Of a stretch of DNA of 64,000 nt, positions 22,054 to 49,747 are shown piece by piece. The notes under the pieces were generated by a model. It was not told the DNA's origin, made no database searches, and saw only the letters and a list, made by a program, of their open reading frames with translations. Position numbers and translations under genes: made by a program. Origin of the DNA: Bacteroidota bacterium (lineage in GTDB: Bacteria > Bacteroidota > Bacteroidia > Palsa-965); assembly GCA_013288325.1 (NCBI GenBank), contig JABDCB010000004.1, positions 4,485 through 68,484 of the forward strand, given 5' to 3'. Position 1 is the stretch's first letter; every line of letters starts with the position of its first letter.

Positions 22054-23106
22054 TTGTCGCAGGTAAATGAAGATCTGATACGGAGAGTTTTTGAGGAAAT
22101 GGTCAAACACAAACCTGCTCTTGCCAAATATCTGGCAGCAGATGAAGATGACCCTTCCGAAACGGTGGATACCCGTGTCCTGGCGGATATGATTATCAAA
22201 CATTTTCCATGGCCCATAGGCGTGGAGCTGAGAAGATTATTCTCCGGTTCCATGCGTCAGCTGGACAGGGGCCGTCTGGATCAGCTTTTTAAAACGATAG
22301 AACGGACCATTCAGTTTCTCAGCTTTGTGATGCTGGCTCAGCTGTGGGAAGAGAAAATAAAACGAAAATTTGATTTCCCCAAGGAGTATGCTTCCCAGTT
22401 CAAGAATAGGATTTCAGTCCTTTCTCTTGGTAATTATACCTGGTTGATACGTGCCACGGGCAATCTGTTTGAATCGCTGGAGATAGACCCTTTCATGCCC
22501 GAAATGAAAGAGATGCTTCACAAAAAATTGTATGAAGCTCTTGATTTCTGGGTACCGGAGCGAAATGAAATCGGGCATTACCAGATTAATCTGACGGATG
22601 AAGAAATACAAAAACGCTGTGTAGAATATGAGGATAAGCTCACGTTTATTCTTCAAAACATTTCGTTTATCGTAAAGTATAAACTGGTTACCATCCGCGA
22701 AATCAAAGTACTGAAACAAAAACACAAAGAGCCCCGCTTTAACCATATCATGGATCTGTTGAATAATTCCGATTCGGATTTTAAAGCCACGGAAATGCAG
22801 CACGATGTTTTTGCCGATAGCAACTCGGTATTGCTCATGAAAGATTTTAAGGTGCCGGAAGAATTTTTGAATCTGAGTCCACTGATCATTGATACCCGTC
22901 CCGAAATAATCGATTCTAAAGAGAAATTCAATCTCAAGAAAGATATTTTCATGTACACCAAATTCAGCAATGATAAGCTGATGTATGTGGGTACGGAGGT
23001 GACGGAGAAATGTGACCTCAGTTATCTGAGCAATTATCCCGTCCTGGTAGAGCAGTTCAAAGAATTGCTTACCGCTTTTGCTGCACCTGAAACGATCAAT
23101 TCCTAA
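22054..23106 (+). CDS. hypothetical protein with HEPN-like Rx4H motif (helical N-half, mixed C-half); first gene of the STAND module
   Basis: 350-aa ORF. ERNEIGHY at residues 169-176 (nt 22558-22581; the RNEIGH core is residues 170-175, nt 22561-22578) fits the HEPN RNxxxH pattern. The stop lies 5 nt before the next start. Start uncertain (TTG 22054 or ATG 22099). Confidence 0.78.
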   Translation: MSQVNEDLIRRVFEEMVKHKPALAKYLAADEDDPSETVDTRVLADMIIKHFPWPIGVELRRLFSGSMRQLDRGRLDQLFKTIERTIQFLSFVMLAQLWEEKIKRKFDFPKEYASQFKNRISVLSLGNYTWLIRATGNLFESLEIDPFMPEMKEMLHKKLYEALDFWVPERNEIGHYQINLTDEEIQKRCVEYEDKLTFILQNISFIVKYKLVTIREIKVLKQKHKEPRFNHIMDLLNNSDSDFKATEMQHDVFADSNSVLLMKDFKVPEEFLNLSPLIIDTRPEIIDSKEKFNLKKDIFMYTKFSNDKLMYVGTEVTEKCDLSYLSNYPVLVEQFKELLTAFAAPETINS

Positions 23107-23111
23107 GCATC

Positions 23112-26000
23112 ATGCAGGGCAGCCCGTTCAAGTTTCTGGATAGCTTTACAAAGGAAGACAAGGATATTTTCTTCGGGCGCGACCGGGAAATAGAAGAAAT
23201 CTATTCCCGTGTTTTCCAAAGCAACCTTTTGCTTGTATACGGTGCTTCGGGAACGGGTAAAACAAGTCTTATCCAATGTGGTCTGGCCAATAAGTTTAAT
23301 GATTCCGACTGGCTTCCTATTCTCATCCGCCGCGGAAGCAATATACTTACATCCATACGGGCTCAGCTGGAGCATCTGGCCATTACACCCATTAAAGAAG
23401 GGGCTTCGTTAAAAAAGTCGATCGAGTCCCTTTATCTGGATCATTTCAAACCGGTATATCTCATATTTGATCAGCTGGAAGAGCTTTTTATTTTCGGATC
23501 CCCGGACGAGATCGGCGGTTTTGTGACGGAAGTAGCAAAGATTTTAAAGTCCGATTTGCAGTGTAAATTCATTTTCATTATCCGCGGCGAATACCTCGAA
23601 CACCTGAGTGTATTTGAAGAAAAGGTTCCCGAATTTTTCAGCAACCGGATACGGATTGAAAAGATGACACGTCTGCACGCCGCAGAAGCCATTACAGGTC
23701 CTTGCCGTAAAGCAAACATTGGTCTTGATCCAGGGTTTGAATTGAATTTTCTGGAGATGCTTTGTCCCGGCAAAGCCGAAGTGGAACTCACCTACCTCCA
23801 GGTTTTTCTCGATAAGCTGTATAAGAAAGCTGTTCAGAAAAATGCGGCCCATCCTGTTTTTACCAATGGACTGTTAAAAGAAACGGGACAGATCAGCGAC
23901 GTGCTATCCGATTTCCTGGAAGAACAGATAGCACGTATCCCCGACTCGGAAGCTGCACTGGCGGTGCTGAAAAGCTTTGTATCCATGGAGGGTACAAAAC
24001 GACAGGTTGATATAGAGGAGATTGAAAAGTTTGTAAGAACACTGGGCAAACAGCTGCCTCTGGAAACCATAGAAAAGCTGGTGCACCAGTTTGTGGATCT
24101 ACGCATTTTACGTGATAAGGATGAGTCGGGCAAATATGAGTTACGTCACGATTCCCTGGCGGTAAAGATCTATGAAAAGATTACCCTGGTTGAAAAAGAT
24201 CTGATAGAGGTGAAAACGCTGATTGAAAATGCGTATTCCAATTATCTGAAGCGACATATTCTCATTCATGAAAGCGATCTGGCCTATATAGCACCTTATG
24301 AGCGCAATCTATTTTTAAGCGAGAAGCTGCAGCAGTTTCTGGATGATAGTAAACGTGCTTCTACGCAGACAAAAAGACGCAGACGACTTGCCTTATTTAT
24401 CGTAACTGGTGTGGCATTTGCGGTACTGAGTGGTTTTACCATCTGGGCCATGAGCGAACGGACCCATGCCATGGAACAAAGCCATGAAGCGGAGAAACAA
24501 AAAATGCTGGCTGAGCAGGAAAAGAATGAAGCCCTCCGATCTAAAGATGAAGCAGTAAAGGCCAATGAGCAGGTGATGCAGGAAAAACTGATTGCGGAGA
24601 AAAATGAGCAGTCGGCATTGGCTGCCAAACAACTGGCCGACAAGGCCAAACAGCAAGCCATGACTGCCATGAATGAGGCGGAAAGAGAAAAAGGGAACGC
24701 CATGTCTCAATCCGAGATTGCAAAAAAAGAAGCATTGAATGCAGAAGCTCAGAAAGAGATAGCCAAAAAAGAAAAAACAAAAGCTGAAGAGTCGGAGAAA
24801 AAAGCACGAAAAAGTTTTGTGCTTTCACTGGCTCAGGGCATAGCCCTGAAGACTCCCCTCTATAAAAATGATCTTCAGCTGGAAGCATTATTAGCTTATC
24901 AGGCTTACAAACTGAATAAAGACAATAACGGACCTGCTCAGGATCCGGTGATCTTTGATGCCTTAAGATCCGCGTTGGGAGCTCCTGACAAACAAAAAGT
25001 AAATCCGGACATAGGGTTTGTACAAACCAATGAATTCATAGCCCTGCAGGAAAGAAACGATACCCTTGTATATGCTGCCCGAAGCGGTTTCATATTCGGA
25101 GTGGATAAAAACAAGCCTTCTTCCTTTACCATCGCAAAGTTGCTGAGCTATCGCTTTTCAATCGATAAACTCTTTTTTAATGCCACAGGCAATTATATAG
25201 TGAGCTCGCATGTAAACAACAGTCTTTGTTTATGGACCCAGCAGCTTCACAATACCGCTCCCGCCTTTCAGGAGTTAACCGGGCATAAAGGTCTTGTCAG
25301 ATCTCTGGCATTCAATACCCGTTCCGATCTTTTTGCAAGCGGAGGAAAAGACAGCCTGCTTATTATCTGGTCCTTACAATCCGGAAAAGCTGCACAGCTC
25401 AAAACAATTAAATTGAATGCTGCCGTCAAGAAACTGGTTTTCTCGAAAGATGAAAGTCAGCTCTTTTGTCTGCTCGAAAACGGCACGATACAACAACTGG
25501 ATCTGAAAACATATACCTATATCCCCTACCCGTACGCAGGCACATCCAAACCGATGGAGATCGCATTGAACCGGAAGAAAAACAAATTGTTGCTTGGACT
25601 GGCCAATGGAAATTTGTGGTCGGAAGATCTGGATACCCACACGCATAGTGATTACAGAGCCCATTTGAGTGGCATTGATTTCCTGGTATTCAATAAAGAT
25701 TACAGTATGCTGGCATCAGCGGGATCGGATCGTACCCTTAAAATTTATGATGCCGATAACCTGGAAAGCAGTCCTATCTCGATTAAGGATCTTCATTCCA
25801 AAGCAAGGGCCATTATATTTACCACCGGCAACCAGCTTTTTGTAGCCTGTGCCGATATCAAAAGCTATCTGATAGAAACATCTTGCGACAGGATGGCTGC
25901 ATCCATTTATCAAACGCTGAAAAGGAATATGACTCAGGACGAGTGGGCTAAGTTTTGTAAAGATGTGACGTATGAAAAAACAAGACCAGATCTGCCTTAA
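23112..26000 (+). CDS. STAND-type P-loop NTPase (nSTAND/NACHT-like) with single TM helix, coiled coil and WD40 repeats
   Basis: N-terminal PFKFLDSFTKEDKDIFFGRDREI; Walker A GASGTGKTS; Walker B VYLIFDQLEE; YELRHDSLA; KRRRR plus a TM helix; K/E/A/Q coiled coil; WD40 blades (LTGHKGLVRSLAF...GGKDSLLIIWSL and AHLSGIDFLVF...AGSDRTLKIYD). Confidence 0.9.
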   Translation: MQGSPFKFLDSFTKEDKDIFFGRDREIEEIYSRVFQSNLLLVYGASGTGKTSLIQCGLANKFNDSDWLPILIRRGSNILTSIRAQLEHLAITPIKEGASLKKSIESLYLDHFKPVYLIFDQLEELFIFGSPDEIGGFVTEVAKILKSDLQCKFIFIIRGEYLEHLSVFEEKVPEFFSNRIRIEKMTRLHAAEAITGPCRKANIGLDPGFELNFLEMLCPGKAEVELTYLQVFLDKLYKKAVQKNAAHPVFTNGLLKETGQISDVLSDFLEEQIARIPDSEAALAVLKSFVSMEGTKRQVDIEEIEKFVRTLGKQLPLETIEKLVHQFVDLRILRDKDESGKYELRHDSLAVKIYEKITLVEKDLIEVKTLIENAYSNYLKRHILIHESDLAYIAPYERNLFLSEKLQQFLDDSKRASTQTKRRRRLALFIVTGVAFAVLSGFTIWAMSERTHAMEQSHEAEKQKMLAEQEKNEALRSKDEAVKANEQVMQEKLIAEKNEQSALAAKQLADKAKQQAMTAMNEAEREKGNAMSQSEIAKKEALNAEAQKEIAKKEKTKAEESEKKARKSFVLSLAQGIALKTPLYKNDLQLEALLAYQAYKLNKDNNGPAQDPVIFDALRSALGAPDKQKVNPDIGFVQTNEFIALQERNDTLVYAARSGFIFGVDKNKPSSFTIAKLLSYRFSIDKLFFNATGNYIVSSHVNNSLCLWTQQLHNTAPAFQELTGHKGLVRSLAFNTRSDLFASGGKDSLLIIWSLQSGKAAQLKTIKLNAAVKKLVFSKDESQLFCLLENGTIQQLDLKTYTYIPYPYAGTSKPMEIALNRKKNKLLLGLANGNLWSEDLDTHTHSDYRAHLSGIDFLVFNKDYSMLASAGSDRTLKIYDADNLESSPISIKDLHSKARAIIFTTGNQLFVACADIKSYLIETSCDRMAASIYQTLKRNMTQDEWAKFCKDVTYEKTRPDLP
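23241..23267 (+). other. Walker A P-loop of the STAND NTPase
   Basis: GASGTGKTS, codons checked against the nucleotide sequence. Confidence 0.9.
24387..24452 (+). other. single predicted transmembrane helix of the STAND NTPase
   Basis: LALFIVTGVAFAVLSGFTIWAM, preceded by KRRRR. The positive-inside rule places the NTPase in the cytoplasm. Confidence 0.75.
25029..25886 (+). other. WD40 beta-propeller region of the STAND NTPase
   Basis: Repeated GH...(S/A)(G/A)(G/S)xD..(I/L)..(W/Y)(D/S) blade signatures. Boundaries approximate. Confidence 0.7.
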
Positions 26001-27196: not shown

Positions 27197-29065
27197 TCAG
27201 AATCGTATTCCGATAACGAGTACATCATCGGTTTGCTCCTGCTCTTCTTTCCACTCTTTCAAATAATTTGCCAGAAATGTTCCCTGCTCCTTCATGGATA
27301 GATTGCGGATAGAAAGCAACACCTCTTTCCATTTGGAAGACTTGAGTTTCTTCCCTCCTTTTCCAAACTGATCGGAATACCCATCGCTGAAAACATATAC
27401 GATGTCGCCGGCTTTCATCTCGAACGAATGTGTTTCAAACTGTTGTTCATCCGGGGTATAACCACCTATGGCCACCTTGGTAGCTTTTATTTCTTCCATT
27501 GCCAGGGCTTCTTTTCTCAGGATCCACAAGGGTCTGTTGGCTCCTGCATAATACAGCATGGTTTTACCGGAAGCGGATGAAAGATGCAACAAGGCAATAT
27601 CCATTCCATCGCGCGTTTCTCCTTCCTGTCCGCTCTGCCCCAATGCTTTCTTCATTCCCTGATTAAGCTGACGGAGTATTTCTCCTGCTTTCCTGCTTTT
27701 CATCAGGGCCTCATTCAGCTTTTCATAGCCCAGCATACTCATAAATGCACCCGGAACACCATGACCGGTACAATCAACCGCTGCTAAATAACAAGCATCC
27801 TCTCTTTGATCTATCCAGTAAAAATCTCCGCTGACAATATCTTTGGGTTGAAAAAAGATAAAACTATCGGGAGCCGTTTTTTGCAACATACCCGGTCGTG
27901 GTAGTATAGCCTGCTGGATACGTTGTGCATAATTAATACTCGCTGTGATATCCTTGTTTTTTTCTTCTATACTGTCGTATGCCGATTTCAGCTCTACATT
28001 TTTGAGGCGGTGAATTTCTGCTTCCTGTTCAGATCGTTCAACGGCAAAAGCGATCTGCTGATTTTTAAGCCGGTTGCCCGATTCAGCATTCAATACTTCT
28101 TCTTTTAATGCATGAAAAGCGCGGAAATGATTCAATGCCTCTTTTGCATTACCCTGCTGTTCATACAAAGCTGAAAACAGGGAATGGATTTCATATAACA
28201 AAGGTTTGGCCTGCAGTGCATCTGCAATCTGTTTTGCTTTCTCCAGTTTTTCTATCCCCTGTTCAGGATCCGACATAGCCAGAGCATGATTGGCAAAGCC
28301 CAGCAAACAATATAAGGCAAGACGTTTATCCTTATCACCGGTATTCAGCGTTTGACAATGCTGATAATAGAAAAGCGCTTTTTCCGGATCCTGTTGTTTT
28401 TCGTATAGCGATGCCAAACCCAGATAGCTCCACGGCAGGGCACCCATTTCTTTAAGCTCTTCCCGAAGGTTGATGCTTTTCCAGTAATAGTCGAGCCCGT
28501 TTTTAAAATCGCCTTTGGCCGTATAGGTTCTGGCAATCATATTTAACGATGATGCTACGGCTTTGAGATCGGGAATCGATTCGCGTATGCGCATACTTTT
28601 CTGGTACGATTCCAAAGCATGATCATAATCGGCTATGCGGAAATAGATGGTGCCTGTGGTGCTCAATATATCGCCAAGGCCTTCCTGATTACCGATAGAC
28701 TCGCCTATTTTAAGTCCCCGCTGACACGCTTCCAACCCTTTATCATACTGTCCGTAGGTATCATATACATTTCCAAGATAATTCAGAGCACGTAGCTGAC
28801 CCAGGGCTTCGTGTGTATGATCAAAATAATGGAGGGATGCTGTCAGATCAAGAAGCATGGAGTCCTGTTCCTGAGAGCGTAAAAAAGCACAAACTCCTTC
28901 ATATAAGCGGGCGTAAGCAACTCCCCGTTCGTATCCTATAACTTCCGATTGTTTATGCGCTTGCTTTGCCTGTTCCAGCGCTTTTGAAGTATCACTGTAT
29001 CTCCACGACCATGCCTGCTCGTTCATGGCGTCAATCCGGCTAATATCCTTCCCTGGCTCTGGCAC
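27197..29065 (-). CDS. cytoplasmic TPR-repeat SpoIIE/PP2C-family protein phosphatase
   Basis: N-terminal TPR repeats and a coiled coil. C-terminal PP2C motifs DIVSGDFYW, DCTGHGVPGAFMSM, SDGYSDQF, DDVLVIGIRF. Start uncertain (GTG 29065 or ATG 29026). Confidence 0.88.
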   Translation of the reverse strand: MPEPGKDISRIDAMNEQAWSWRYSDTSKALEQAKQAHKQSEVIGYERGVAYARLYEGVCAFLRSQEQDSMLLDLTASLHYFDHTHEALGQLRALNYLGNVYDTYGQYDKGLEACQRGLKIGESIGNQEGLGDILSTTGTIYFRIADYDHALESYQKSMRIRESIPDLKAVASSLNMIARTYTAKGDFKNGLDYYWKSINLREELKEMGALPWSYLGLASLYEKQQDPEKALFYYQHCQTLNTGDKDKRLALYCLLGFANHALAMSDPEQGIEKLEKAKQIADALQAKPLLYEIHSLFSALYEQQGNAKEALNHFRAFHALKEEVLNAESGNRLKNQQIAFAVERSEQEAEIHRLKNVELKSAYDSIEEKNKDITASINYAQRIQQAILPRPGMLQKTAPDSFIFFQPKDIVSGDFYWIDQREDACYLAAVDCTGHGVPGAFMSMLGYEKLNEALMKSRKAGEILRQLNQGMKKALGQSGQEGETRDGMDIALLHLSSASGKTMLYYAGANRPLWILRKEALAMEEIKATKVAIGGYTPDEQQFETHSFEMKAGDIVYVFSDGYSDQFGKGGKKLKSSKWKEVLLSIRNLSMKEQGTFLANYLKEWKEEQEQTDDVLVIGIRF

Positions 29066-29196
29066 GTGAAATGATGTTTCAACAAATATAGGGGATTATC
29101 AATCAGGCAAAAATCAGCATTATTCGTCTCTACTTAACCTCTAATAAATCCTTTTTTGATATATTTAGCCACTATTGCCAAGACACCCCATTGACT

Positions 29197-32100
29197 ATGC
29201 GTTTTATATTACGATTCTTCTGTTTTTTTCTGCTGCTGACAGCTCCTTCCTTATGCTTATTAGCTCAACCTGAGGATGTTAAATTTGAAAATATTCCATC
29301 TGAACAAGGGCTTTCGAATAAATCAATTCCAGCCATTATTGAAGACAAGCAAGGTTTTCTTTGGTTTGCTACCCAGGATGGACTGAATAAATATGACGGG
29401 TATGAGTTTAAGGTGTTTCAAAACGACCCGTCCGATTCCAACACCATTTCCAATAATAATATCTTTTGTCTTATACAGGATAAGGATGGATTTCTGTGGA
29501 TGGGTACAGAAAACGGAGGTCTTAATAAGTTTGACCCCCGCACGGAAAAGTTTACGCGGTTTATACACGACGAAGGCAATGCATCTTCTATCTGCAGCAA
29601 TAATATCTACAGTATCCTACAGGCCAAAAACGGAGATCTGTGGATCGGAAGCTGGGAAGCAGGCATTGATGTTATGGATCCTAAAACCGGGAAAATACTA
29701 AACCGCTATCATCACAAATCAGGAAAAGAAAATACCCTTTCCAATGGCGGTATCTGGAGCATATTTGAAGATGAAACGGGCATATTCTGGATCTCTACCT
29801 GGGGCAGCGGGCTTGATAAGCTTGATCCGGCAACCGGGCGATTTAAACATTTCCGCCACGACCCTAAAAACCCTTCCAGTATAAGCCATGACATCATTGG
29901 TCCTGTTTATGAAGATAAACATGGCCGTATATGGGTTGCCACCTGGGGCGGTGGATTAAACCTGCTGGACAGAAAAAAAGAAACATTCCGGAGTTTTCAA
30001 CATGCTGCCGATAATCCAAAAAGTATCGGAAGCAATCTGATCTGGCCTATAACCGAAGATTGGGAAGGTAATTTATGGGTAGGAACATATGGCTCCGGTG
30101 TTAACCGTTTTGATCCCCGGACAGAAAACTTTCACCGCTTTGCTCATGATGCCGATGATCCAACCAGTCTTAATCACAATGATGTCTGGTCGCTGCACCT
30201 CGATCGCTCCAATATTCTGTGGGTTGGTACCGAAGGTGGAGGCATAAGCAAATATGTCAATATCCGTAAAGAAGTAGATGTATATGCTTATGACCCGGGC
30301 AATCCGCTTAGTCTGGGTCATAATTCTGTTCGTGCAGTGCATGAAGATCAGGATGGTATCCTTTGGATCGGAACCTGGGATGGAGGACTTGATAAATATG
30401 ATCCATCGGTAGAGAAAATAAAAAATTACAAATTAGATGATAATGAAGAAGGCACTTCGGGATTAAACAAGATCAAATGCATTACAAGCGATCATACCGG
30501 AAGGCTTTGGCTGGGTACTTATCGTGGGGGGCTTTGTGAGTTTAATAAGAGTACGCAAACGTTTACCAACTACACCCACGATCCATCCAACCCCTCCTCC
30601 ATCAGCGACGATTATGTTTACTGTCTGGAAGAAGACAATCAGAATAATTTGTGGGTTGGAACACTCAATGGTCTCAATATTTTTGACCGGACATCAAAAA
30701 CGTTTACCCGTATTAAAAGTGATCCGGCCAATGAACACAGCCTGAGTAATAATACTATCAACACCATCTATCAGACCAAAGATGGCACTTTATGGTTCGG
30801 TACCGATTACGGACTGAACAAATATGACTACACCAAAAAATCGTTTACCCGGTTTCTGCATGAAGCACAGGACCCGCATAGCCTGAGCCATAGTACCGTT
30901 TATACCATCTATGAAGATAAAACCGGCATCTTATGGATAGGTACCCGAAACGGACTTAACAAATTCAATCCCGCTGATCATAGCTTTGAACATTATGATA
31001 CCAAAGACGGACTTCCGAACAGTATTATTATGTCTATACTGGAAGATGCAAAAGGAGATCTGCTTATCAGTACCAAAAATGGCATTTCCCGTTTTAATAA
31101 AGAACAAAAAACATTTATCAATTACGATCTCAGCGATGGTATACAGGGCCGCCAGTTTTTCCCTAATTCCTCCTGCAAGGCAAAAGACGGGAAACTTTAT
31201 TTCGGTGGCACAGAAGGACTCAACTCCTTTTATCCCGATCGTATACAAAATAACCCGTATATACCACCGGTTGTTATTACAAGCATAAAGAAATCGGGTG
31301 AAGAAATCCGTTTTGGAAAACTTATTGAGAATGTAAAAGAGCTTGTCCTCCCCTATCATGAAAACTCACTTTCTTTTGAGTTTGTTGGTCTCAGCTATGC
31401 CAACCCCGATGAAAATCAATATGCCTATAAGCTGGAAGGTGTTGATGAAGACTGGAAATACAGCGGAAATGTACGGGTAGCCAACTATTCCAATCTGAGA
31501 CCAGGCAACTACATATTCCGGGTAAAAGCCTCTAATGATGATGGGCTCTGGAATAACAAAGGCGCCAGTATCCGGGTTACCATTACTCCGCCTTTCTGGA
31601 AAACACTTTGGTTTTTTATTCTCTGTATTCTTCTCGGGTTGGTTCTTATATTTCTGTACATCAAGAACAGAGAGCGGAAATTATTAAAGGAGAAAAAGAT
31701 CCTGGAAGATAAGGTGGAAGAAAGAACCGCTGAGGTGATGACACAGAAAGAAATTCTTGAAACTCAGAATAAAGAGATCAGAGATAGTATTTTATATGCC
31801 AAACGTATTCAGGAAGCTATTCTACCGGCTCAGGAAGATGTGCTTCATGCTTTCCCTGACTCCTTTATTCTTTTCAAACCCCGTGATATTGTAAGCGGTG
31901 ACTTTTACTGGTTCTCCGAAAAAAATGGCAAAGCTATTGTGACAGCAGCCGATTGTACCGGACATGGCGTTCCGGGAGCCTTTATGAGTATGATAGGCAA
32001 TACCCTGCTCAATCAGATTGTAAATGAAAAAGGGATTGTAAAACCCGATGATATCCTGCTGCATCTGAGGGAGAATATCATGAAAAGTCTTAAACAAACC

Positions 32101-32526
32101 GGAGCCGAAGGTGAAAATAAAGACGGTATGGATATTGCGCTTTGTACCTACGATCTGAATACAAGGGAGCTGCAATTTGCAGGTGCTAACAACCCGCTTT
32201 ATATTGTCAGTAATGGGGAGTTATCGGAAATTAAAGGTGATAAACAGCCTATTGGTGTATACATGGGCGAACCCAAACCATTTACCTGTCAAACCGTACA
32301 GCTTCAAAAAGGAGATTGTGTTTATATTGCCAGCGATGGATATGCGGACCAGTTTGGCGGATCGCACGGCAAAAAATTCAAATACAAGCAAATGAAAGAC
32401 TTGCTGCTGGCTTTGAATGACAAAAAAATGTCTGAACAACGTATCACCCTCAACGAAGAAATTGAAAAATGGAAGGGCACGCTTGAACAGGTGGATGATA
32501 TCCTTGTTATCGGTTTCCGGGTTTGA
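29197..32526 (+). CDS. periplasmic beta-propeller (two-component-regulator propeller + Y_Y_Y) sensor fused via one TM helix to a SpoIIE/PP2C phosphatase
   Basis: Signal peptide; many W(I/V)GTxxGGLxxFD blades; YAYKLEGVDEDW; TM helix LWFFILCILLGLVLIFLYI. The PP2C motifs are the same as in the neighbouring paralog (DIVSGDFYW, DCTGHGVPGAFMSM, DDILVIGFRV). Confidence 0.9.
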   Translation: MRFILRFFCFFLLLTAPSLCLLAQPEDVKFENIPSEQGLSNKSIPAIIEDKQGFLWFATQDGLNKYDGYEFKVFQNDPSDSNTISNNNIFCLIQDKDGFLWMGTENGGLNKFDPRTEKFTRFIHDEGNASSICSNNIYSILQAKNGDLWIGSWEAGIDVMDPKTGKILNRYHHKSGKENTLSNGGIWSIFEDETGIFWISTWGSGLDKLDPATGRFKHFRHDPKNPSSISHDIIGPVYEDKHGRIWVATWGGGLNLLDRKKETFRSFQHAADNPKSIGSNLIWPITEDWEGNLWVGTYGSGVNRFDPRTENFHRFAHDADDPTSLNHNDVWSLHLDRSNILWVGTEGGGISKYVNIRKEVDVYAYDPGNPLSLGHNSVRAVHEDQDGILWIGTWDGGLDKYDPSVEKIKNYKLDDNEEGTSGLNKIKCITSDHTGRLWLGTYRGGLCEFNKSTQTFTNYTHDPSNPSSISDDYVYCLEEDNQNNLWVGTLNGLNIFDRTSKTFTRIKSDPANEHSLSNNTINTIYQTKDGTLWFGTDYGLNKYDYTKKSFTRFLHEAQDPHSLSHSTVYTIYEDKTGILWIGTRNGLNKFNPADHSFEHYDTKDGLPNSIIMSILEDAKGDLLISTKNGISRFNKEQKTFINYDLSDGIQGRQFFPNSSCKAKDGKLYFGGTEGLNSFYPDRIQNNPYIPPVVITSIKKSGEEIRFGKLIENVKELVLPYHENSLSFEFVGLSYANPDENQYAYKLEGVDEDWKYSGNVRVANYSNLRPGNYIFRVKASNDDGLWNNKGASIRVTITPPFWKTLWFFILCILLGLVLIFLYIKNRERKLLKEKKILEDKVEERTAEVMTQKEILETQNKEIRDSILYAKRIQEAILPAQEDVLHAFPDSFILFKPRDIVSGDFYWFSEKNGKAIVTAADCTGHGVPGAFMSMIGNTLLNQIVNEKGIVKPDDILLHLRENIMKSLKQTGAEGENKDGMDIALCTYDLNTRELQFAGANNPLYIVSNGELSEIKGDKQPIGVYMGEPKPFTCQTVQLQKGDCVYIASDGYADQFGGSHGKKFKYKQMKDLLLALNDKKMSEQRITLNEEIEKWKGTLEQVDDILVIGFRV

Positions 32527-43126: not shown

Positions 43127-44092
43127 ATGAACTACACGATCCTTGATAAAAAAGATACCCGTTCAGGTTTTGGAGCAGGGTTGTTTGAATTAGGAAGAAC
43201 TAATCCTGAAGTGGTTGCACTTTGTGCCGATCTTACCGGCTCCCTTAAAATGGATGCTTTTCAGAAAGAGTTTCCGGATCGTTTTTTTCAGATCGGGATT
43301 GCGGAGGCCAATATGATCGGGATTGCTGCCGGACTTACTATAGGAGGAAAAATTCCTTTCACCGGCACCTTTGCTAATTTCTCAACCGGAAGGGTTTATG
43401 ATCAGATCCGTCAAAGTGTTGCTTATTCAGGTAAGAATGTCAAGATATGTGCATCTCATGCCGGTCTTACCCTGGGCGAAGATGGTGCTACCCATCAGAT
43501 TCTGGAAGACATTGGATTGATGAAAATGCTGCCCGGGATGACCGTTATAAACCCTTGTGATTATAACCAAACCAAAGCTGCAACCCTTGCTATTGCAAAA
43601 CATACAGGACCTGTATACCTTCGTTTTGGCCGGCCGGTAGTACCCAATTTCACCCCTCCGGATCAGCCCTTTATCATTGGCAAAGCCCTTCATCTTCAGG
43701 AAGGAACGGATGTAAGTATTTTCGCTACAGGCCATCTGGTATGGCAAGCACTGGAAGCGGCCAAAGTACTGAAAGACAAGGGTATTTCTGCCGAAATCAT
43801 CAATATTCACACCATTAAACCTTTGGATGAAGCAGCAGTCTTAAACTCATTGGCAAAAACGCGTTGTGCTGTAAGTGCGGAAGAGCATCAAATGAATGGA
43901 GGACTGGGAGATAGTATTGCTCAGTTGCTTGCCCGCAAACATCCTGCACCTATAGAAATGGTAGCGGTGAAAGATAGTTTTGGAGAAAGTGGTACTCCGG
44001 AACAGTTGATGACCAAATACGGTTTGGATGCAGCACATATCGTACTTGCCGCTGAAAAAGTAATGCAACGGAAGCATGCTCTGATTGCATAA
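43127..44092 (+). CDS. transketolase, C-terminal (pyrimidine-binding) subunit
   Basis: FQIGIAEANMIGIAAGL, DGATHQ, and a C-terminal transketolase-C fold region. Confidence 0.93.
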   Translation: MNYTILDKKDTRSGFGAGLFELGRTNPEVVALCADLTGSLKMDAFQKEFPDRFFQIGIAEANMIGIAAGLTIGGKIPFTGTFANFSTGRVYDQIRQSVAYSGKNVKICASHAGLTLGEDGATHQILEDIGLMKMLPGMTVINPCDYNQTKAATLAIAKHTGPVYLRFGRPVVPNFTPPDQPFIIGKALHLQEGTDVSIFATGHLVWQALEAAKVLKDKGISAEIINIHTIKPLDEAAVLNSLAKTRCAVSAEEHQMNGGLGDSIAQLLARKHPAPIEMVAVKDSFGESGTPEQLMTKYGLDAAHIVLAAEKVMQRKHALIA

Positions 44093-44673
44093 TGTCATCT
44101 TCAACCAACCCCATGAATGACTATTCCGACAAGGAGCTGCTAGAACAGTTCAGGAATGAAAGCTCCCGTAATATGGCTTTCAACCAGCTTGTCAGAAAAT
44201 ACCAGAGACGTGTATACTGGCATATCCGCAGGCTTGTTGTGGATCATGATGATGCGGATGACGTAACCCAGAATACCTTTATCAAAGCCTGGAAGGGCTT
44301 ACATAATTTCAAAGAAGACTCTCAGCTATTTACCTGGCTATACCGGATTGCAACCAACGAATCATTCACTTTTCTGAAACAGAAAAAAGCCAATCTGAAT
44401 CTTCCGTTGGATGATGCTTCTTATGCTATTTCCAAAACACTTACCGATGACAATTTCTTTACCGGAGATGAAATTCAAAAAAAACTTCAGCGGGCGATTC
44501 TGACCCTTCCGGAAAAGCAAAGGATTGTGTTCAATATGAAATACTTTGACGAAATGAAATATGAAGAGATGAGCAAAGTGCTGGATACTTCAGTTGGGGC
44601 TTTAAAAGCCTCTTATCATATAGCGGTAAAGAAAATAGAAGCTTTTGTATTGAAAGAGGTTGAAAACATCTGA
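44092..44673 (+). CDS. ECF-type RNA polymerase sigma-70 factor
   Basis: Region 2 (DDADDVTQNTFIKAW) and region 4 HTH (EEMSKVLDTSVGALKASYHIAVKKI). The start overlaps the transketolase stop (TAATG). Confidence 0.9.
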   Translation: MSSSTNPMNDYSDKELLEQFRNESSRNMAFNQLVRKYQRRVYWHIRRLVVDHDDADDVTQNTFIKAWKGLHNFKEDSQLFTWLYRIATNESFTFLKQKKANLNLPLDDASYAISKTLTDDNFFTGDEIQKKLQRAILTLPEKQRIVFNMKYFDEMKYEEMSKVLDTSVGALKASYHIAVKKIEAFVLKEVENI

Positions 44674-44772
44674 AACAAACCAGAAGGGCAAAAACCGATG
44701 GTAACCCGGAAAAATGAAGATTTCTTGAAGATGTGCTTAAACCTTTAATTATTTTAGATATCAAAGTATTAA

Positions 44773-45438
44773 ATGAACACTCCCGGACACATACATGATG
44801 ATGCAGAAGACCTGAGCAACCTTCCCGGCTTTTTACAGGAAGGTAAGAAAGGGCTTGTTTATCAGGTACCTGCAGATTATTTTGAGGAGCTGCCTAGGCG
44901 TATTATGTCCGAAATAAGGCTTCTTGATCTAAAACCGGCAGAGCAACCGGTTCCGGAACACTTTTTTGAAGAGCTTTCGGAAGCCATTCATCATTCGATT
45001 ATCATTGAAAACCTCTCTATCAGCAAGGAAGAACCTTATCAGGTTCCGGCCGACTACTTTGACTGGCTCCCTTCCCGTATTCAGGATAAGATTGTAACCG
45101 CTCCCCGGGTTCGTTTTGGCCTGGATTGGTGGAAACAATGGGCCACTGTCCGTATTCTTTTACCCAGCGCATTGGGAGTTGTTGTTCTTTTAATCTGCAT
45201 ACGATTCATGGCCCCTGCTGCCAATACCAATGAATCTTTTGCTTTGAATGAGCAGGACAAAAAGGAAGTAATTGAGAATCCTGAAGCATTTGGGTTGGAC
45301 GAAAGTATTGTGATGGAACATGTGGTTAACAGAAGTAAGATTTTGGACAAGACATCTTCTTCATCCGATCAAAATGAAGCCATTGATTACCTGATAGAAA
45401 ACAATGTCGACCTCAATTCCCTTCCTTCAGACAATTGA
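44773..45438 (+). CDS. putative anti-sigma factor / single-pass membrane protein
   Basis: Follows the ECF sigma gene. One TM helix (ILLPSALGVVVLLICIRF). Cytoplasmic repeats YQVPADYFEELPRRI and YQVPADYFDWLPSRI. Confidence 0.55.
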   Translation: MNTPGHIHDDAEDLSNLPGFLQEGKKGLVYQVPADYFEELPRRIMSEIRLLDLKPAEQPVPEHFFEELSEAIHHSIIIENLSISKEEPYQVPADYFDWLPSRIQDKIVTAPRVRFGLDWWKQWATVRILLPSALGVVVLLICIRFMAPAANTNESFALNEQDKKEVIENPEAFGLDESIVMEHVVNRSKILDKTSSSSDQNEAIDYLIENNVDLNSLPSDN

Positions 45439-45908
45439 CAATCTCCTTTATGATGAAAAATTTACTTCTTCCCCTGCTGCTTCTTTTCACCTTACCTGCT
45501 GTTGCACAGCAACGACCAGGTGCTCGCGAGAAAATAGAAACGATGAAAATCGCTTATATCACTACTGCTTTAAATCTTACGGAACTGGAAGCTCAGCAAT
45601 TCTGGCCCGTTTATAACGAAGCCGAAGTAAAAAGAAGAGAGCTTCGTAAATCCAGGATGACAGAACGCTTGGATGCTGCACAGAATTTTGAAACGATGAC
45701 AGACAAGGAAGCCGAAGTATTTATTGACAAAGAAATGGAGTTCAAACAAAAAGAACTTGATATCCAGAAGGAACTACATGTTAAGCTCAAAAAAGTACTG
45801 CCTGCAAAAAAGATAGCCCGTTTGTATAAGGCGGAAACCGATTTTCAACGTAAAGTACTTCAGGAACTGGAGCGAAAAAAAGAGAATGAAATGCCTCCGG
45901 GGCATTAA
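45435..45908 (+). CDS. periplasmic helical protein (Spy/CpxP-like by composition) of the ECF cluster
   Basis: Signal peptide (LLLLFTLPAVAQQ), highly charged helical sequence, 4-nt overlap with the upstream gene. Confidence 0.55.
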   Translation: MTISFMMKNLLLPLLLLFTLPAVAQQRPGAREKIETMKIAYITTALNLTELEAQQFWPVYNEAEVKRRELRKSRMTERLDAAQNFETMTDKEAEVFIDKEMEFKQKELDIQKELHVKLKKVLPAKKIARLYKAETDFQRKVLQELERKKENEMPPGH

Positions 45909-45930: not shown

Positions 45931-47094
45931 TCAGCTCAAAAGGAAAAGCCTGTCCCAATCAGCAGGTATTTCAAAACCATATTCTGCGCTTAGTAATACA
46001 AGCCCAATACCGGCTATTCCCTCCAGCATCCCATATTCAGGCTGCCATCCCAGATCACCTTGCCAGGCCCTATAGCCAGCCAAACCGGATCCGTGAATAC
46101 GCATCTGTTTGGTCTGTTTAAGCCAGTAATATACTGACTTTAGAAACTCCGGCTCTCCTGTTGCTTCATAAAAACGAAAAAACATCTGACAGAGACCAGC
46201 TGATCCGTGACAAAAACCAGCATCGTATACCTGATCCAGCTTAAGATTCCTTCTTTTGCCGCATTCGGACATCAGACGAAAGCCCTTTTCCTGAATATCA
46301 TGCCAGCCAAACAGCTCACCTGCTTTCCAATGGGCTAAAGCAATTCCCATATCACCTATACACCAGGCCATACGCGTAAAGCCAGAAGCGGCAGGATAGA
46401 GATTACAAAAAGAAGAACGGGAATTTTCAATTTTGAAATATGAATACAAGCCTATCAACCGTTCACAAAGTATCTTGATTCTGATCCGCTCATAACCCGA
46501 CTTATACAGATGAATGAGTACCAACAACAGTCCTGAAATACCATGTGAAAGCGAAGAATTCAGATACCCCTCTGTAAAGCAATAAATTCCCTTTTCATCA
46601 TTAAACCGGGTAAATCCTATACGGCTGGTATTCATTCCATAAATGGGATACAATTCATCAATAAAAGCCCGAACGGAGTCCTGATGAAGACATCCTTCAC
46701 TTGACAAACACCAGATAATACCGGTAGCCCCATGTATAAAGTCGAAATTTTTTGCGTGCAAATATTCCGGTAAAAGATTCCGTATCATTCCCTCCAATTG
46801 CAGATACAGCTCATCTGCTGCATGACAAGCAGGTTTCATTTTCTTCAGACATTTAATCAGGTAATAAACTCCCGACAAACCGGATATAGAGCCTGAAATT
46901 GTTCCATGCTCATTAATACGCTTTACCAACAAAAAGATATCTTCTTCGGGGTCATATTTTTTTCCGGTAACCTGACTTAAATACAAATGGAAATAAATGG
47001 CTGAAGCCATTCCACCTAAAATATCATACCGGTTATCTTCAATACCAGAGGCTATCTTCATAGCCTTCTTCATCTCAAGAATCAATTCCGACAT
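45931..47094 (-). CDS. LanC-type lanthionine cyclase-like protein
   Basis: All three LanC hallmark motifs are present: SLSHGISGLL (acid/base His), MAWCIGDMGIA (Zn Cys) and GFCHGSAGL (Zn Cys-His), plus repeated GxxG helical-toroid repeats. Confidence 0.85.
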   Translation of the reverse strand: MSELILEMKKAMKIASGIEDNRYDILGGMASAIYFHLYLSQVTGKKYDPEEDIFLLVKRINEHGTISGSISGLSGVYYLIKCLKKMKPACHAADELYLQLEGMIRNLLPEYLHAKNFDFIHGATGIIWCLSSEGCLHQDSVRAFIDELYPIYGMNTSRIGFTRFNDEKGIYCFTEGYLNSSLSHGISGLLLVLIHLYKSGYERIRIKILCERLIGLYSYFKIENSRSSFCNLYPAASGFTRMAWCIGDMGIALAHWKAGELFGWHDIQEKGFRLMSECGKRRNLKLDQVYDAGFCHGSAGLCQMFFRFYEATGEPEFLKSVYYWLKQTKQMRIHGSGLAGYRAWQGDLGWQPEYGMLEGIAGIGLVLLSAEYGFEIPADWDRLFLLS

Positions 47095-47491
47095 AGGAGG
47101 ATACTATAAGTGATTTTAAATATGGAAAGGAAAAGAATGCCAAAAAACAAAAAAGGATGCAATTGTAAATAGTAACCAGAGGACCAAAAGAATAACAGAG
47201 ATTGATGAGAAAAATATTAGTCTGAATAGCCAAAGCGAGACAACTTCCGACAGATCTTAAACCTTTAAACAACAAACAAACTCCGGCCAGGAGCTGGAAA
47301 CATCCGACAATTTGAATATATAAAGGAGCCGCGCTGAAATAATAAAAGGTAAGAGCACGAAGTCCCATCGTGTCATTCAGAATGATAGGGTGAGTTTGAT
47401 TAAAATGTAAGCGGGCGATTTTCAGCAAACCGAAAAACAAAAAATTCAGTGCAATACAAAAACGCAATAATCTTCTTAGTCTCTTCCACAT
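47075..47491 (-). CDS. small polytopic membrane protein (about 4 TM; DoxX/MauE-like by composition, unverified)
   Basis: 138-aa hydrophobic ORF between the precursor and LanC genes. 20-nt overlap with the LanC start. Confidence 0.7.
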   Translation of the reverse strand: MWKRLRRLLRFCIALNFLFFGLLKIARLHFNQTHPIILNDTMGLRALTFYYFSAAPLYIQIVGCFQLLAGVCLLFKGLRSVGSCLALAIQTNIFLINLCYSFGPLVTIYNCILFCFLAFFSFPYLKSLIVSSYVGIDS

Positions 47492-47504
47492 ACCCTGTTA
47501 TTTA

Positions 47505-47540
47505 GAAGCCCCGGCTTTATAAACTCAATGCCGGGGCTTC
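47505..47540 (-). terminator. perfect 11-bp stem-loop between the precursor gene and the downstream maturation genes (attenuator or RNA-stabiliser candidate)
   Basis: GAAGCCCCGGC (47505-47515) pairs with GCCGGGGCTTC (47530-47540) around a 14-nt loop. It starts 7 nt after the precursor stop. No clear U-tract. Confidence 0.5.
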
Positions 47541-47546
47541 AGTCAT

Positions 47547-47765
47547 TTACTGCGCCCCACTTCCCCCGCACTGAGCCTCTGTATAGTTACAGATAGGCCC
47601 ATTGGTGCAACCTGTGGTGCAACGACAGCCAAGCGACCATACCTGCGAACCGATGGTTGTCCATTGCGCATCGCCTCCTCTTATCGCTCTCAGGCTTTCA
47701 TCTTCCAAACGAACGATGGTTTCTTTGTTCAAAGCTAACTTGCCTTTCTTTTTTTTGTCTTTCAT
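47547..47765 (-). CDS. RiPP precursor peptide with Bacteroidota-type double-glycine leader and Cys/Ser/Thr-rich core
   Basis: Leader MKDKKKKGKLALNKETIVRLEDESLRAIRGG. The 41-aa core DAQWTTIGSQVWSLGCRCTTGCTNGPICNYTEAQCGGSGAQ has 5 Cys and 9 Ser/Thr. Confidence 0.75.
   Translation of the reverse strand: MKDKKKKGKLALNKETIVRLEDESLRAIRGGDAQWTTIGSQVWSLGCRCTTGCTNGPICNYTEAQCGGSGAQ
47550..47672 (-). other. predicted core peptide (after GG cleavage)
   Basis: Residues 32-72 following IRGG. Confidence 0.6.
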
Positions 47766-47860
47766 TTTATGTTGGTTTTAGTTCTTAATAATTTCATTTC
47801 TGAAACAACATTAACAATACATTTCTGGGAAATAAAATATATTACTCATACTTCACCATA

Positions 47861-47893
47861 AGCCCTGTGAACACATTGGCTACCCTGACAATA
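47861..47893 (-). promoter_or_regulatory. candidate direct-repeat operator (AGCCCTGTGAACA / TACCCTGACAATA, 20-bp phase) upstream of the precursor gene
   Basis: CCCTG pentamers at 47863 and 47883, between the LytTR regulator stop and the precursor start. Weak similarity only. Confidence 0.2.
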
Positions 47894-47907
47894 AATTTTT
47901 TGGTTAA

Positions 47908-48627
47908 TCAAACAATCGTGAGCCTCTTCAGCAATTCTTCTTTGTAGGTAGCTCCAATAGGTATTACACGGGTTTTGTTTTGATAATTCAAAACAATCTC
48001 ATTTCCGGAAATTTCACGGATAGGATAAATAGAGATAATATAAGACTTATGAACCCGGATAAACTGTCCTTCCGGAAGAATCCGTTGCATCCCGGACATG
48101 GTCTTATACAAAGTAATATTCCCCTGATGGGTAGCAATAATCACATAGTTTCCTGCAGCTTCCACAAACAAGATATCCCTGTAAATAACCTTCACCTTTC
48201 GTCCGTCCATATCGGCAAAGAAAAACTCAGAATCAACGGATGTTGTTCTTTGCAAGGAGTTTTTAAGCCTATCCATACACACTTTAAATCGCTGGAAACT
48301 AACCGGCTTTAACAGATAATCCATCACTCCATGATCGTATCCGCTAAGTGCATATTTATCACAGTCAGAAACAAATACAAATACAGGCATATTCCTGCCG
48401 GCCTTGGTTTTCAGAGCAGCAATAAATTCCATTCCGTTCAAATACGGCATATGTACTTCCAGAAAAATCAGATCCGGTGTATACAATTCATAAGCAACCA
48501 AGGCTTCCCGCGGATCGGCAAAGGATGCTTTGAGATGGAGATCGGAGAACATACGTATATGTTCACGAAGCAAATGAATGGATGTTTCCTGCCCATCCAC
48601 TATCATACATGTGATTAAGGGTTTCAA
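47908..48627 (-). CDS. LytTR-family response regulator with Glu at the phospho-acceptor position
   Basis: The receiver aligns by eye to AlgR/AgrA. PDLIFLEVHMPYLNG has E57 where the conserved Asp sits; DD is replaced by DG (VDGQE); Ser/Lys (VSD, LLKPV) are retained. The C-terminal LytTR domain contains FIRVHKSYII. Confidence 0.88.
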   Translation of the reverse strand: MKPLITCMIVDGQETSIHLLREHIRMFSDLHLKASFADPREALVAYELYTPDLIFLEVHMPYLNGMEFIAALKTKAGRNMPVFVFVSDCDKYALSGYDHGVMDYLLKPVSFQRFKVCMDRLKNSLQRTTSVDSEFFFADMDGRKVKVIYRDILFVEAAGNYVIIATHQGNITLYKTMSGMQRILPEGQFIRVHKSYIISIYPIREISGNEIVLNYQNKTRVIPIGATYKEELLKRLTIV

Positions 48628-48718
48628 AACAGATTATTTTGAGAAAGTCCTGGAAGACTGTTTCCGATTAGCTGCACTTCATCTCACGCCTCCTTCGATA
48701 ATTGTGAATCAAAATTAG

Positions 48719-49747
48719 GTGTTCATTTATGGGTTTCCATATATATTATTCGAAATTGTTTTCAGCCGTGATGTACTTCGTGTTTTGACTGATGAAATAA
48801 TAACAGTTCCTTTATTTCCTATTTTATTGAGCTGGCATCTGGGATTTTCGTTTCCTATAAAGTACTTTAGCAGGTTTGCTTTGTATATACATCACCCCAC
48901 CTTTCTTTTTTATTATCTTCGATCCGTGTTCAAGTATATCACCCATACCTTCTATCAGACCTTTCTAAACGCCGAGCAGGAATCAACCGGTTATATACTG
49001 GCTAATGGAAAACGGTTTGATCGAAAATTATTGATCGTATGCCTTTTTACGGCTGTTTGTTTAACACTTATCCATTATTTCCAGGAAACCAGTTTTGCTT
49101 TTGAGTTTCTCAGAAATATAGGAGCGGACAGAATTGCAGACAGGCTGGAAGAAAGGCTTCATCATTCTGTTCATGCACAATTATGGCGACTGGCCTGGTG
49201 GGCGGGATTAATTGTCTTTTTCTACCTGTTGGTTCCCATTGCGGTAATACGTTTTGTATTTAAGGAGAAGCTGAGCGAATACGGACTTCGGCTGAGGGGG
49301 GCTTTTAAGGATATTCGCATCTATATACTCATGCTGGCAGTGATGATTCCCCTCGTACTCTTTTTTTCGGGCACCAAGAGTTTTCAGGCACGTTATCCTT
49401 TCTATGAGCTGAAACCGGGAGAGTCTTTAATACCCGATTTTATAATCTGGGAAGGGCTGTACTTTTTACAATTTTTTTCGCTTGAATTCTTTTTCCGCGG
49501 TTTCCTGTTACATGGATTAAAAAATCGCTTTGGCTTTTACAGTATTTTTGTCATGACCATTCCGTACTGTATGATTCATTTCGGAAAGCCTTTGCCGGAA
49601 ACACTGGCAGCCATCATTGCGGGGATTGTGCTGGGCATACTGAGTTTAAAAAGCCGCTCCGTGTTTCTGGGGGTACTTATCCACTATAGTGTTGCAATTA
49701 CCATGGATCTGTGCGCACTGTGGCAGAAAGGGTTTTGGAATCACTGA
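48719..49747 (+). CDS. CPBP-family (CAAX/Abi) intramembrane protease
   Basis: Motifs LEFFFRGF (ExxxR), CMIHFG (FxxxH-like) and IHYSVAITMD, with multiple TM helices. There is no ATG in the first ~200 codons, so the true start (GTG/TTG) is uncertain and probably lies downstream of 48719. Confidence 0.75.
   Translation: MFIYGFPYILFEIVFSRDVLRVLTDEIITVPLFPILLSWHLGFSFPIKYFSRFALYIHHPTFLFYYLRSVFKYITHTFYQTFLNAEQESTGYILANGKRFDRKLLIVCLFTAVCLTLIHYFQETSFAFEFLRNIGADRIADRLEERLHHSVHAQLWRLAWWAGLIVFFYLLVPIAVIRFVFKEKLSEYGLRLRGAFKDIRIYILMLAVMIPLVLFFSGTKSFQARYPFYELKPGESLIPDFIIWEGLYFLQFFSLEFFFRGFLLHGLKNRFGFYSIFVMTIPYCMIHFGKPLPETLAAIIAGIVLGILSLKSRSVFLGVLIHYSVAITMDLCALWQKGFWNH

Follow-up and report, generated by a model that had tools for sequence, protein, structure and literature searches.

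The closest described relatives of the locus considered here are the class I lanthipeptide clusters of Bacteroidota whose leaders carry LxLxKx5L...GG and whose LanT has a C39 domain (PMC7268733), the nearest example being the metagenome locus L002 (lineage P0005), which by its gene content is a canonical, complete class I cluster running LanA, a membrane protein that we call TM (134 amino acids, aa), LanC, LanB (1038 aa, PF04738 and PF14028), LanT (C39 ABC), an HlyD-like protein (433 aa) and a TM paralogue (137 aa). Our locus lies at 45931-49747 of a 64,000-nucleotide (nt) stretch of contig JABDCB010000004.1 from a Bacteroidota bacterium of the Palsa-965 lineage, hereafter the window, and consists of a LytTR response regulator (RR), a lanthipeptide precursor (LanA), a TM and a lanthionine cyclase (LanC), with a CPBP protease homologue alongside. 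It shares with the Bacteroidota clusters the leader motif and the GG site, and with L002 in particular a near-identical core, the LanA-TM-LanC order, the overlap of the TM and LanC genes and an intact LanC active site, but it is without LanB, LanT and HlyD, and has a LytTR regulator where L002 has helix-turn-helix (HTH) and LuxR-type regulators.

With the nisin type (NisA, NisB, NisC, NisT, NisP, NisRK) the locus has in common a separate cyclase of the His/Cys-Cys-His kind, a modification that depends on the leader and a hairpin that follows the structural gene; its leader, however, ends in GG and not in a LanP site, no dehydratase, transporter or protease is clustered with it, its LytTR regulator comes without a kinase in place of the OmpR-type NisR with NisK, and its host is Gram-negative. 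It is already known that lanB and lanC can be dispersed within one genome, as in Spirosoma linguale, with four lanB, five lanC and one clustered pair, and similarly in Microscilla marina (Marsh et al. 2010, PMC3091789); that genes for lanthipeptide maturation can lie unclustered is likewise known (PMC8960859), and the category of 'LanC without dehydratase' has been described (PMC7268733). The Spirosoma and Microscilla cases are, however, counts only (PMC3091789), to which a locus of the present type adds a LanA, conserved synteny, purifying selection and a candidate LanB. Stand-alone LanC-like genes of Bacteroidales (PMC10352776) are likewise from Bacteroidota and without LanB, but they have no zinc-ligand motifs, lie near carbohydrate-active enzymes and are likely not cyclases, whereas the LanC of the window keeps the motifs and adjoins a LanA. 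What this case adds is a selected LanC-only module with its LanA, a candidate partner LanB, a new accessory TM and a LytTR regulator with a pseudo-receiver.

We consider it probable, though some way from certain, that the locus is one half, with precursor and cyclase, of a split (satellite) class I lanthipeptide system. All five open reading frames (ORFs) are present, and the minus-strand order of regulator, GG-leader precursor, strong hairpin, 138-aa membrane protein and LanC described in the original prediction is borne out, as is the overlap of exactly 20 nt between the TM gene and the start of lanC. The features of the locus are as follows.

45931-47094, minus strand: LanC lanthionine cyclase, 387 aa (PF05147, E 8.6e-32)
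47075-47491, minus strand: polytopic membrane protein TM, 138 aa, with no Pfam or NCBIfam match, overlapping the lanC start by 20 nt
47505-47540, minus strand: stem-loop between lanA and the downstream genes (folding free energy, dG, -24.1 kcal/mol, z -3.7)
47547-47765, minus strand: LanA precursor, 72 aa (NF038153 leader, 36.4 bits, cutoff 22)
47673-47765, minus strand: LanA leader, residues 1-31, with GG end, MKDKKKKGKLALNKETIVRLEDESLRAIRGG
47550-47672, minus strand: LanA core, 41 aa, DAQWTTIGSQVWSLGCRCTTGCTNGPICNYTEAQCGGSGAQ
47766-47907, minus strand: lanA upstream region, presumed promoter/operator, with GGGTAGC at 47879-47885, conserved between the window and L001
47908-48606, minus strand: orphan response regulator, receiver and LytTR domains (PF00072, PF04397)
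48719-49747, plus strand: CPBP (Rce1-like) intramembrane protease homologue, start uncertain (PF02517, 38.3 bits), divergent from the regulator

The LanA leader is matched by the NCBIfam model 'class I lanthipeptide leader' well above its curated cutoff, and fits the LxLxKx5L...GG motif that Walker et al. 2020 (PMC7268733) reported for class I LanAs of Bacteroidetes. The core holds five Cys and nine Ser/Thr, in keeping with a class I precursor. When it is compared with the cores of L004 (NAQWTTIGSDVWSLGCRCTTGCTAGPICNWTETQCGGSGAPNK), a locus of another lineage, and of L002 (ATAWTTIGSQVWSLGCRCTAGCTDGPICKYTEASQTCQTV), identity is 85% to the former and 90% to the latter over positions 4-33, and seven Ser/Thr and four Cys are conserved across the three lineages together with a fifth, C-terminal Cys, the tail reading QCGGSGAQ in the window and SQTCQTV in L002. 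Among 5.8 billion proteins the precursor family comprises a mere three clusters, and judged by its sequence the peptide represents a new, uncharacterised and unusually conserved lanthipeptide core family. Since a near-identical core and leader occur in the LanB-containing L002, it would seem that this peptide family is normally made with a LanB.

The catalytic His and the Cys/Cys-His zinc-ligand motifs of LanC, which had been read as intact, are indeed so: His184, Cys245 and Cys295-His296 do not vary within the subfamily and fall on the SHG, WC and CHG motifs when aligned to a LanC-like protein of solved structure, matches in the PDB include NisC, and the residues by which a stand-alone LanC is recognised as a cyclase are all present. 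The LanC is 92% identical to that of lineage P0001, 40-44% identical to those of P0002-P0005 and at most 35% identical to the remainder, and a scan of GTDB species representatives with the LanC subfamily gave only distant LanCs, of at most 32% identity, the source genome not being one of these representatives. The contig of P0004 has an arrangement of its own, with two precursors, two cyclases and an unusual esterase-family gene in the order LytTR regulator, LanA (58 aa), erythromycin-esterase-like protein, LanC, LanA (65 aa), LanC, ABC ATPase, ABC-2 permease and a 597-aa gene that is cut by the contig end.

The absence of a LanB, whole or split, of LanM, LanKC or LanL and of a C39 exporter, also put forward in the original prediction, holds for the whole window. 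A LanB profile hidden Markov model (HMM) from 21 LanBs, covering the glutamylation and elimination domains and run with filters off, gave a best match of E 0.9 in the six-frame translation of all 64 kb, and tblastn and phmmer searches of the window with the LanB, LanT and HlyD of L002 gave nothing below E 0.1. No second LanC-like region was found in the window, which excludes LanM, LanKC and LanL from it, and the large ORFs encode AcrB, an M1 peptidase, a STAND-WD40 protein, SpoIIE phosphatases, ParC, ParE, TamB and an M28 peptidase. Neither the in-cluster LanB (PF04738 with PF14028) nor the C39 LanT, or LanP, for leader removal and export that characterise class I is therefore present in the window, and some 5 kb beyond one end of it also contain no LanB. 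Weak matches to LanB and LanT immediately downstream of lanC (45546-45887) have tblastn E values of at least 1, fall inside the conserved 157-aa gene of the opposite strand and were discarded as chance matches.

Most likely the genome encodes the missing dehydratase at some other locus. When metagenomes were scanned with the LanB alignment, 80 loci were obtained, and 10 of the 31 LanB loci that are fully flanked have no LanC nearby. One of the solitary LanBs, L030 5986-9156 (the same as L102 10001-13171), is a protein of 1056 aa on contig Ga0210396_10000319 (69.6 kb), from the same sample as L001, the LanC-only locus of the sister lineage to the window. It is intact at 133 of the 134 columns invariant among the 21 LanBs, lacks any LanA, LanC or LanT in the 10 kb flanking it in each direction, and lies between two His_kinase-LytTR pairs, its other neighbours being AcpH, an M61 peptidase and proteins with type IX secretion system (T9SS) tails; a 38-aa ORF adjoining it proved not to be a LanA. 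The orphan LanB and the LanC-only sister locus co-occur in at least three metagenomes, JGI 3300021180, JGI 3300021404 and ENA ERZ27253675. The GC content of the L030 contig is 0.435 against 0.430 for the window, and its tetranucleotide correlation with the window (r 0.954) is in the range seen between 15-kb chunks within the window (0.94-0.96), compared with 0.917 for the best other LanB locus and 0.728 for a complete LanB cluster from the sample of L001 and L030. Taken together this is suggestive of one genome, in the sister lineage and not in the window's own assembly, that carries both a LanB-only and a LanA-TM-LanC locus. Among the routes of maturation that had originally been proposed, dehydration in trans is thus the one favoured, by the match of core and TM in L002 and by the co-occurring LanB.

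Several points weigh against a LanB in trans. The margin in composition is small, as a related lineage reaches r 0.92-0.93 and one unrelated contig 0.917, and the link between L030 and L001 is one of metagenome co-occurrence and composition, not of a closed genome. A cluster look-up of the orphan LanB, covering orthologues of at least 90% identity, and of its neighbours gave nothing that bears the source signature of the window, and in the operator search the lanB promoter of L030 shared no regulatory motif with the lanA promoter. The part of the source genome that was inspected is the 64 kb and the ~5 kb beyond one end, on a contig of 91 kb (NCBI, IMG, Logan SRR8430184), and within this span neither a LanB nor an exporter of the window's own genome was shown; nor did a candidate for a trans-acting C39 exporter emerge. 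Finally, the literature searched gave no example in which a LanB acts on the precursor of an unlinked lanA-lanC locus.

Two further LanB loci, L044 and L071, possibly from the sample series of the window since their Ga numbers are near those of the P0003-lineage samples, were rejected as partners on composition (GC 0.35 and 0.38, r 0.77-0.80). L044 6001-12310 is a LanB-LanT-HlyD locus without LanC, in which a 49-aa LanA-like peptide has a leader ending ...ILGG and a core, KAHVSTAPVTVPPSTTN; the peptide has no Cys at all, and its product may be dehydrated yet uncyclised.

If the locus is half of a split class I system, a pathway can be proposed in which the atypical, kinase-independent LytTR regulator would activate the lanA-TM-lanC operon, whilst the hairpin after lanA would hold the mRNA of the precursor above the level of that of the enzyme. 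Recognition of the 72-aa precursor would be through its LxLxKx5L leader, and its conserved Ser/Thr would be dehydrated by a LanB from another locus, after which the local LanC could close up to five thioether rings on the five Cys. TM, kept in a fixed ratio with LanC by translational coupling, may tether LanC at the membrane or protect the producer, and an unlinked C39-type ABC exporter (PCAT) with an HlyD partner would cut at the GG site and export the peptide. Mining pipelines discard LanC loci without a nearby dehydratase as 'unclassified', and some of these would seem to be live, selected class I halves; with the LanB, and presumably the exporter, sited elsewhere, the products can be found only if pairing starts from the precursor and takes in the whole genome. 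Should the pairing in trans be true, it would provide a clean model for cross-locus substrate recognition by the enzymes of peptides that are synthesised ribosomally and modified post-translationally (RiPPs). The locus furthermore points to a small membrane protein by which its LanC is accompanied in every case and to a kinase-independent LytTR regulator.

The gene set recurs in relatives, whose synteny the original prediction had proposed to check. For the P0001 (L001) lineage 13 contigs, taken from several metagenomes, were read, and those places that are shown share order and neighbours with the window, syntenic proteins being 92-99% identical. In the P0003 lineage (L004-L006) CPBP, RR, LanA, TM and LanC stand at the same chromosomal site, again without LanB, beside genes for a 157-aa protein, an anti-sigma factor, an extracytoplasmic function (ECF) sigma factor and a transketolase, and on the P0002 contig LanA-TM-LanC is followed by the same convergent sigma operon. 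The RR-LanA-TM-LanC block, with ECF-sigma and transketolase genes adjoining, is found at this one site in the lineages of the window and L001, of P0003 and of P0002, LanC identity to the latter two being only 42-44%. Between the window and L001 (dS ~0.4) the ratio of nonsynonymous to synonymous substitution rates (dN/dS) is 0.03 for LanA, 0.08 for TM, 0.10 for RR, 0.10 for CPBP and 0.11 for LanC, so that purifying selection acts on each of the five. From the window to L004 the backbone proteins are 73-94% identical, LanA 75%, CPBP 65%, TM 46%, LanC 44% and RR 40%, and LanCs are 38-44% identical among lineages whose cores are 85-90% identical. The locus is maintained, with the enzymes evolving fast and the peptide slowly. 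Given the low dN/dS and a block kept at the same site in three lineages, the locus does not look like a decaying remnant.

The alternative that survives best, although we regard it as unlikely, is a non-producing leftover: a complete ancestral cluster would have lost LanB, LanT and HlyD, the remainder being kept for some other reason, and in one variant TM and CPBP could give immunity to the lanthipeptide of relatives, with the peptide and LanC carried along or acting as a signal. Such a history is consistent with the gene order, as LanB-LanT-HlyD come directly after LanC in the closest complete relative and in the window lanC is immediately followed by convergent backbone genes, with the identity of RR, TM and LanC between lineages (40-46%) being far below that of the backbone, and with the split regulator of one metagenome contig (L015). 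It sits poorly, however, with a LanA whose dN/dS is the minimum of the locus, with a LanC that at 0.11 keeps all its catalytic residues, and with the preservation in three LanB-less lineages of the Ser/Thr and Cys pattern of the core, which would be unexpected for an unmodified peptide.

TM was searched against Pfam, at E up to 0.1, and NCBIfam with no match. The name 'DoxX/MauE-like' that had been given to it reflects a remote resemblance only, as all matches to these families (PF07681, PF07291) are below threshold: the window TM does not reach the gathering threshold of either, the L004 orthologue scores 18.6 bits for MauE against a cutoff of 27, and a distant homologue 23.3 for DoxX against 23.6. 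TM orthologues sit between lanA and lanC in L001, L004, the P0002 locus and L002, overlap lanC by 17-35 nt in each, and are 40-46% identical between lineages; the second paralogue in L002 stands at the end of the cluster. From this placement TM is probably a partner of LanC or an immunity protein, and because it is present twice in the LanB-containing cluster of L002 it is better seen as an accessory of the peptide family than as a replacement for the dehydratase. Homologues comprise four close stand-alone clusters and some 200 distant matches. In most of the distant matches listed (P0293-P0438) the TM fold recurs as an internal domain, at about residues 110-250, of unannotated membrane proteins of 400-450 aa, for which Pfam and NCBIfam scans gave no annotation; the stand-alone homologue P0291 is not in a lanthipeptide locus and was set aside as uninformative.

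These observations bear on a second alternative, that LanC with TM, or an unknown enzyme, makes an electrophile or a new cross-link without any LanB. There is no dehydratase in the 64 kb, TM is tightly coupled to LanC in every lineage, and 1392 LanC-like proteins without a known dehydratase have been reported from RiPP-like contexts as possibly a new class (Walker et al., PMC7268733). Against this, LanC chemistry requires a dehydroamino acid (PMC9934072), a plausible LanB in trans exists, and the same TM and core occur in a cluster with LanB, which means that TM is no substitute for LanB; on account of this L002 comparison we think LanB-independent chemistry improbable, and its specific form, in which LanC and the coupled TM mature the peptide through a new electrophile route or cross-link, slightly more so. 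If true, LanB-free maturation would define a lanthipeptide-like RiPP class among the ~1400 'unclassified' LanC loci. Maturation by disulfides through a DoxX-like TM, another of the routes first suggested, is disfavoured by the two TMs of the LanB cluster, by the odd number of Cys (five), by the conservation of seven Ser/Thr and of the LanC site, and by the sub-threshold level of the DoxX/MauE matches.

The strong hairpin between lanA and the TM gene, which had been noted from the sequence, was confirmed, as none of 200 shuffles folds as well. Strong hairpins of different sequence are found at the same position in L004 and L002, and the element is likely to be an attenuator or an mRNA-processing element.

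The regulator is unusual in its receiver domain. At the phospho-acceptor position (aligned to CheY Asp57) it has Glu in the window and in L001 and Gly in L004 (6774-7487), and the second residue of the acidic pocket is Gly in the window, whereas the Asp is kept in CheY and in the LytTR regulators adjacent to LanB in L025 and L030. There is no histidine kinase adjoining the window regulator, and a three-component LytTR system of the Pln, Blp or Com kind, in which a cognate kinase that senses an inducer peptide phosphorylates the regulator, is thus not what is encoded here; with the Asp replaced and no kinase adjacent, the regulator is probably atypical and phosphorylation-independent. On the L015 contig of the L001 lineage (1630-2293) the regulator is broken into two ORFs, one of 155 aa with the receiver and one of 63 aa with LytTR, as a result either of misassembly or of a frameshift or stop carried by that population. 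LytTR regulators adjoin 21 of the 80 Bacteroidota-type LanB loci and can therefore be taken as an ordinary feature of these class I clusters.

A 9-10-mer, GGGTAGCTG(C/T), is found upstream of lanA in the window (GGGTAGCC, 47879-47885), in L001 (6111) and in L004 (7647), and also upstream of lanB in L025 (5915), where the adjacent regulator is the closest homologue (43%) of that of the window. It is a possible operator, with weak post-hoc statistics, and the GGGTAGC 7-mer is not enriched overall (117 observed, 152 expected).

CPBP belongs to PF02517 (Rce1-like) and its nearest NCBIfam model is of the MrtA type, which it matches below cutoff (89 bits against 200). The ORF as listed is 342 aa from a GTG, and as orthologues are called at 290 and 269 aa the true start is probably further in; the two His motifs are kept, and motif 1 reads LEFFFRG where EExxxR is the usual form, and the protein might conceivably serve in immunity or as a leader peptidase. 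CPBP adjoins the locus in the window, L001 and L004, but L002 does not have it and none of the 80 LanB loci has a homologue, and between the window and L004 it is 65% identical compared with 40-46% for RR, TM and LanC. As it is absent from LanB loci and far better conserved than the lanthipeptide genes, we treat CPBP as a probable chromosomal backbone neighbour whose membership of the lanthipeptide system is doubtful. The original view of LytTR and CPBP as the regulatory and immunity pairing of Gram-positive class II bacteriocin loci is weakened by these counts (21 of 80 and 0 of 80), by a regulator lacking both the phospho-acceptor Asp and a kinase, and by the backbone-like evolution of CPBP. 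We regard as very improbable a class II-type bacteriocin, unmodified or with disulfides, that is regulated by LytTR, with CPBP as immunity protein and LanC irrelevant. A GG leader is present with a LytTR regulator and CPBP adjacent, but the core has an odd number of Cys (five), its leader is scored as that of a class I lanthipeptide, LanC is conserved by selection and shares a transcript with lanA, CPBP has not turned up at other lanthipeptide loci and its evolution resembles that of the backbone, and the window has no C39 exporter.

Convergent with lanC, at 44092-45908 on the plus strand, is an operon that encodes an ECF sigma factor, a probable anti-sigma factor of 221 aa that has no domain matches, and a protein of 157 aa that weakly matches Metal_resist/LTXXQ. 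This operon is syntenic in all LanB-less lineages, and between lineages the sigma factor is 85% identical and the anti-sigma-like protein only 38%. Elsewhere in the window, 22054-26000 (plus strand) encodes a 350-aa ORF and, after it, a 962-aa protein in which an nSTAND1 NTPase is fused to WD40 repeats, and nearby, at 27197-32526, are two proteins with a SpoIIE phosphatase, of which one carries TPR repeats and the other Reg_prop/Y_Y_Y domains; these genes are signalling- or defence-like and unrelated to the lanthipeptide locus.

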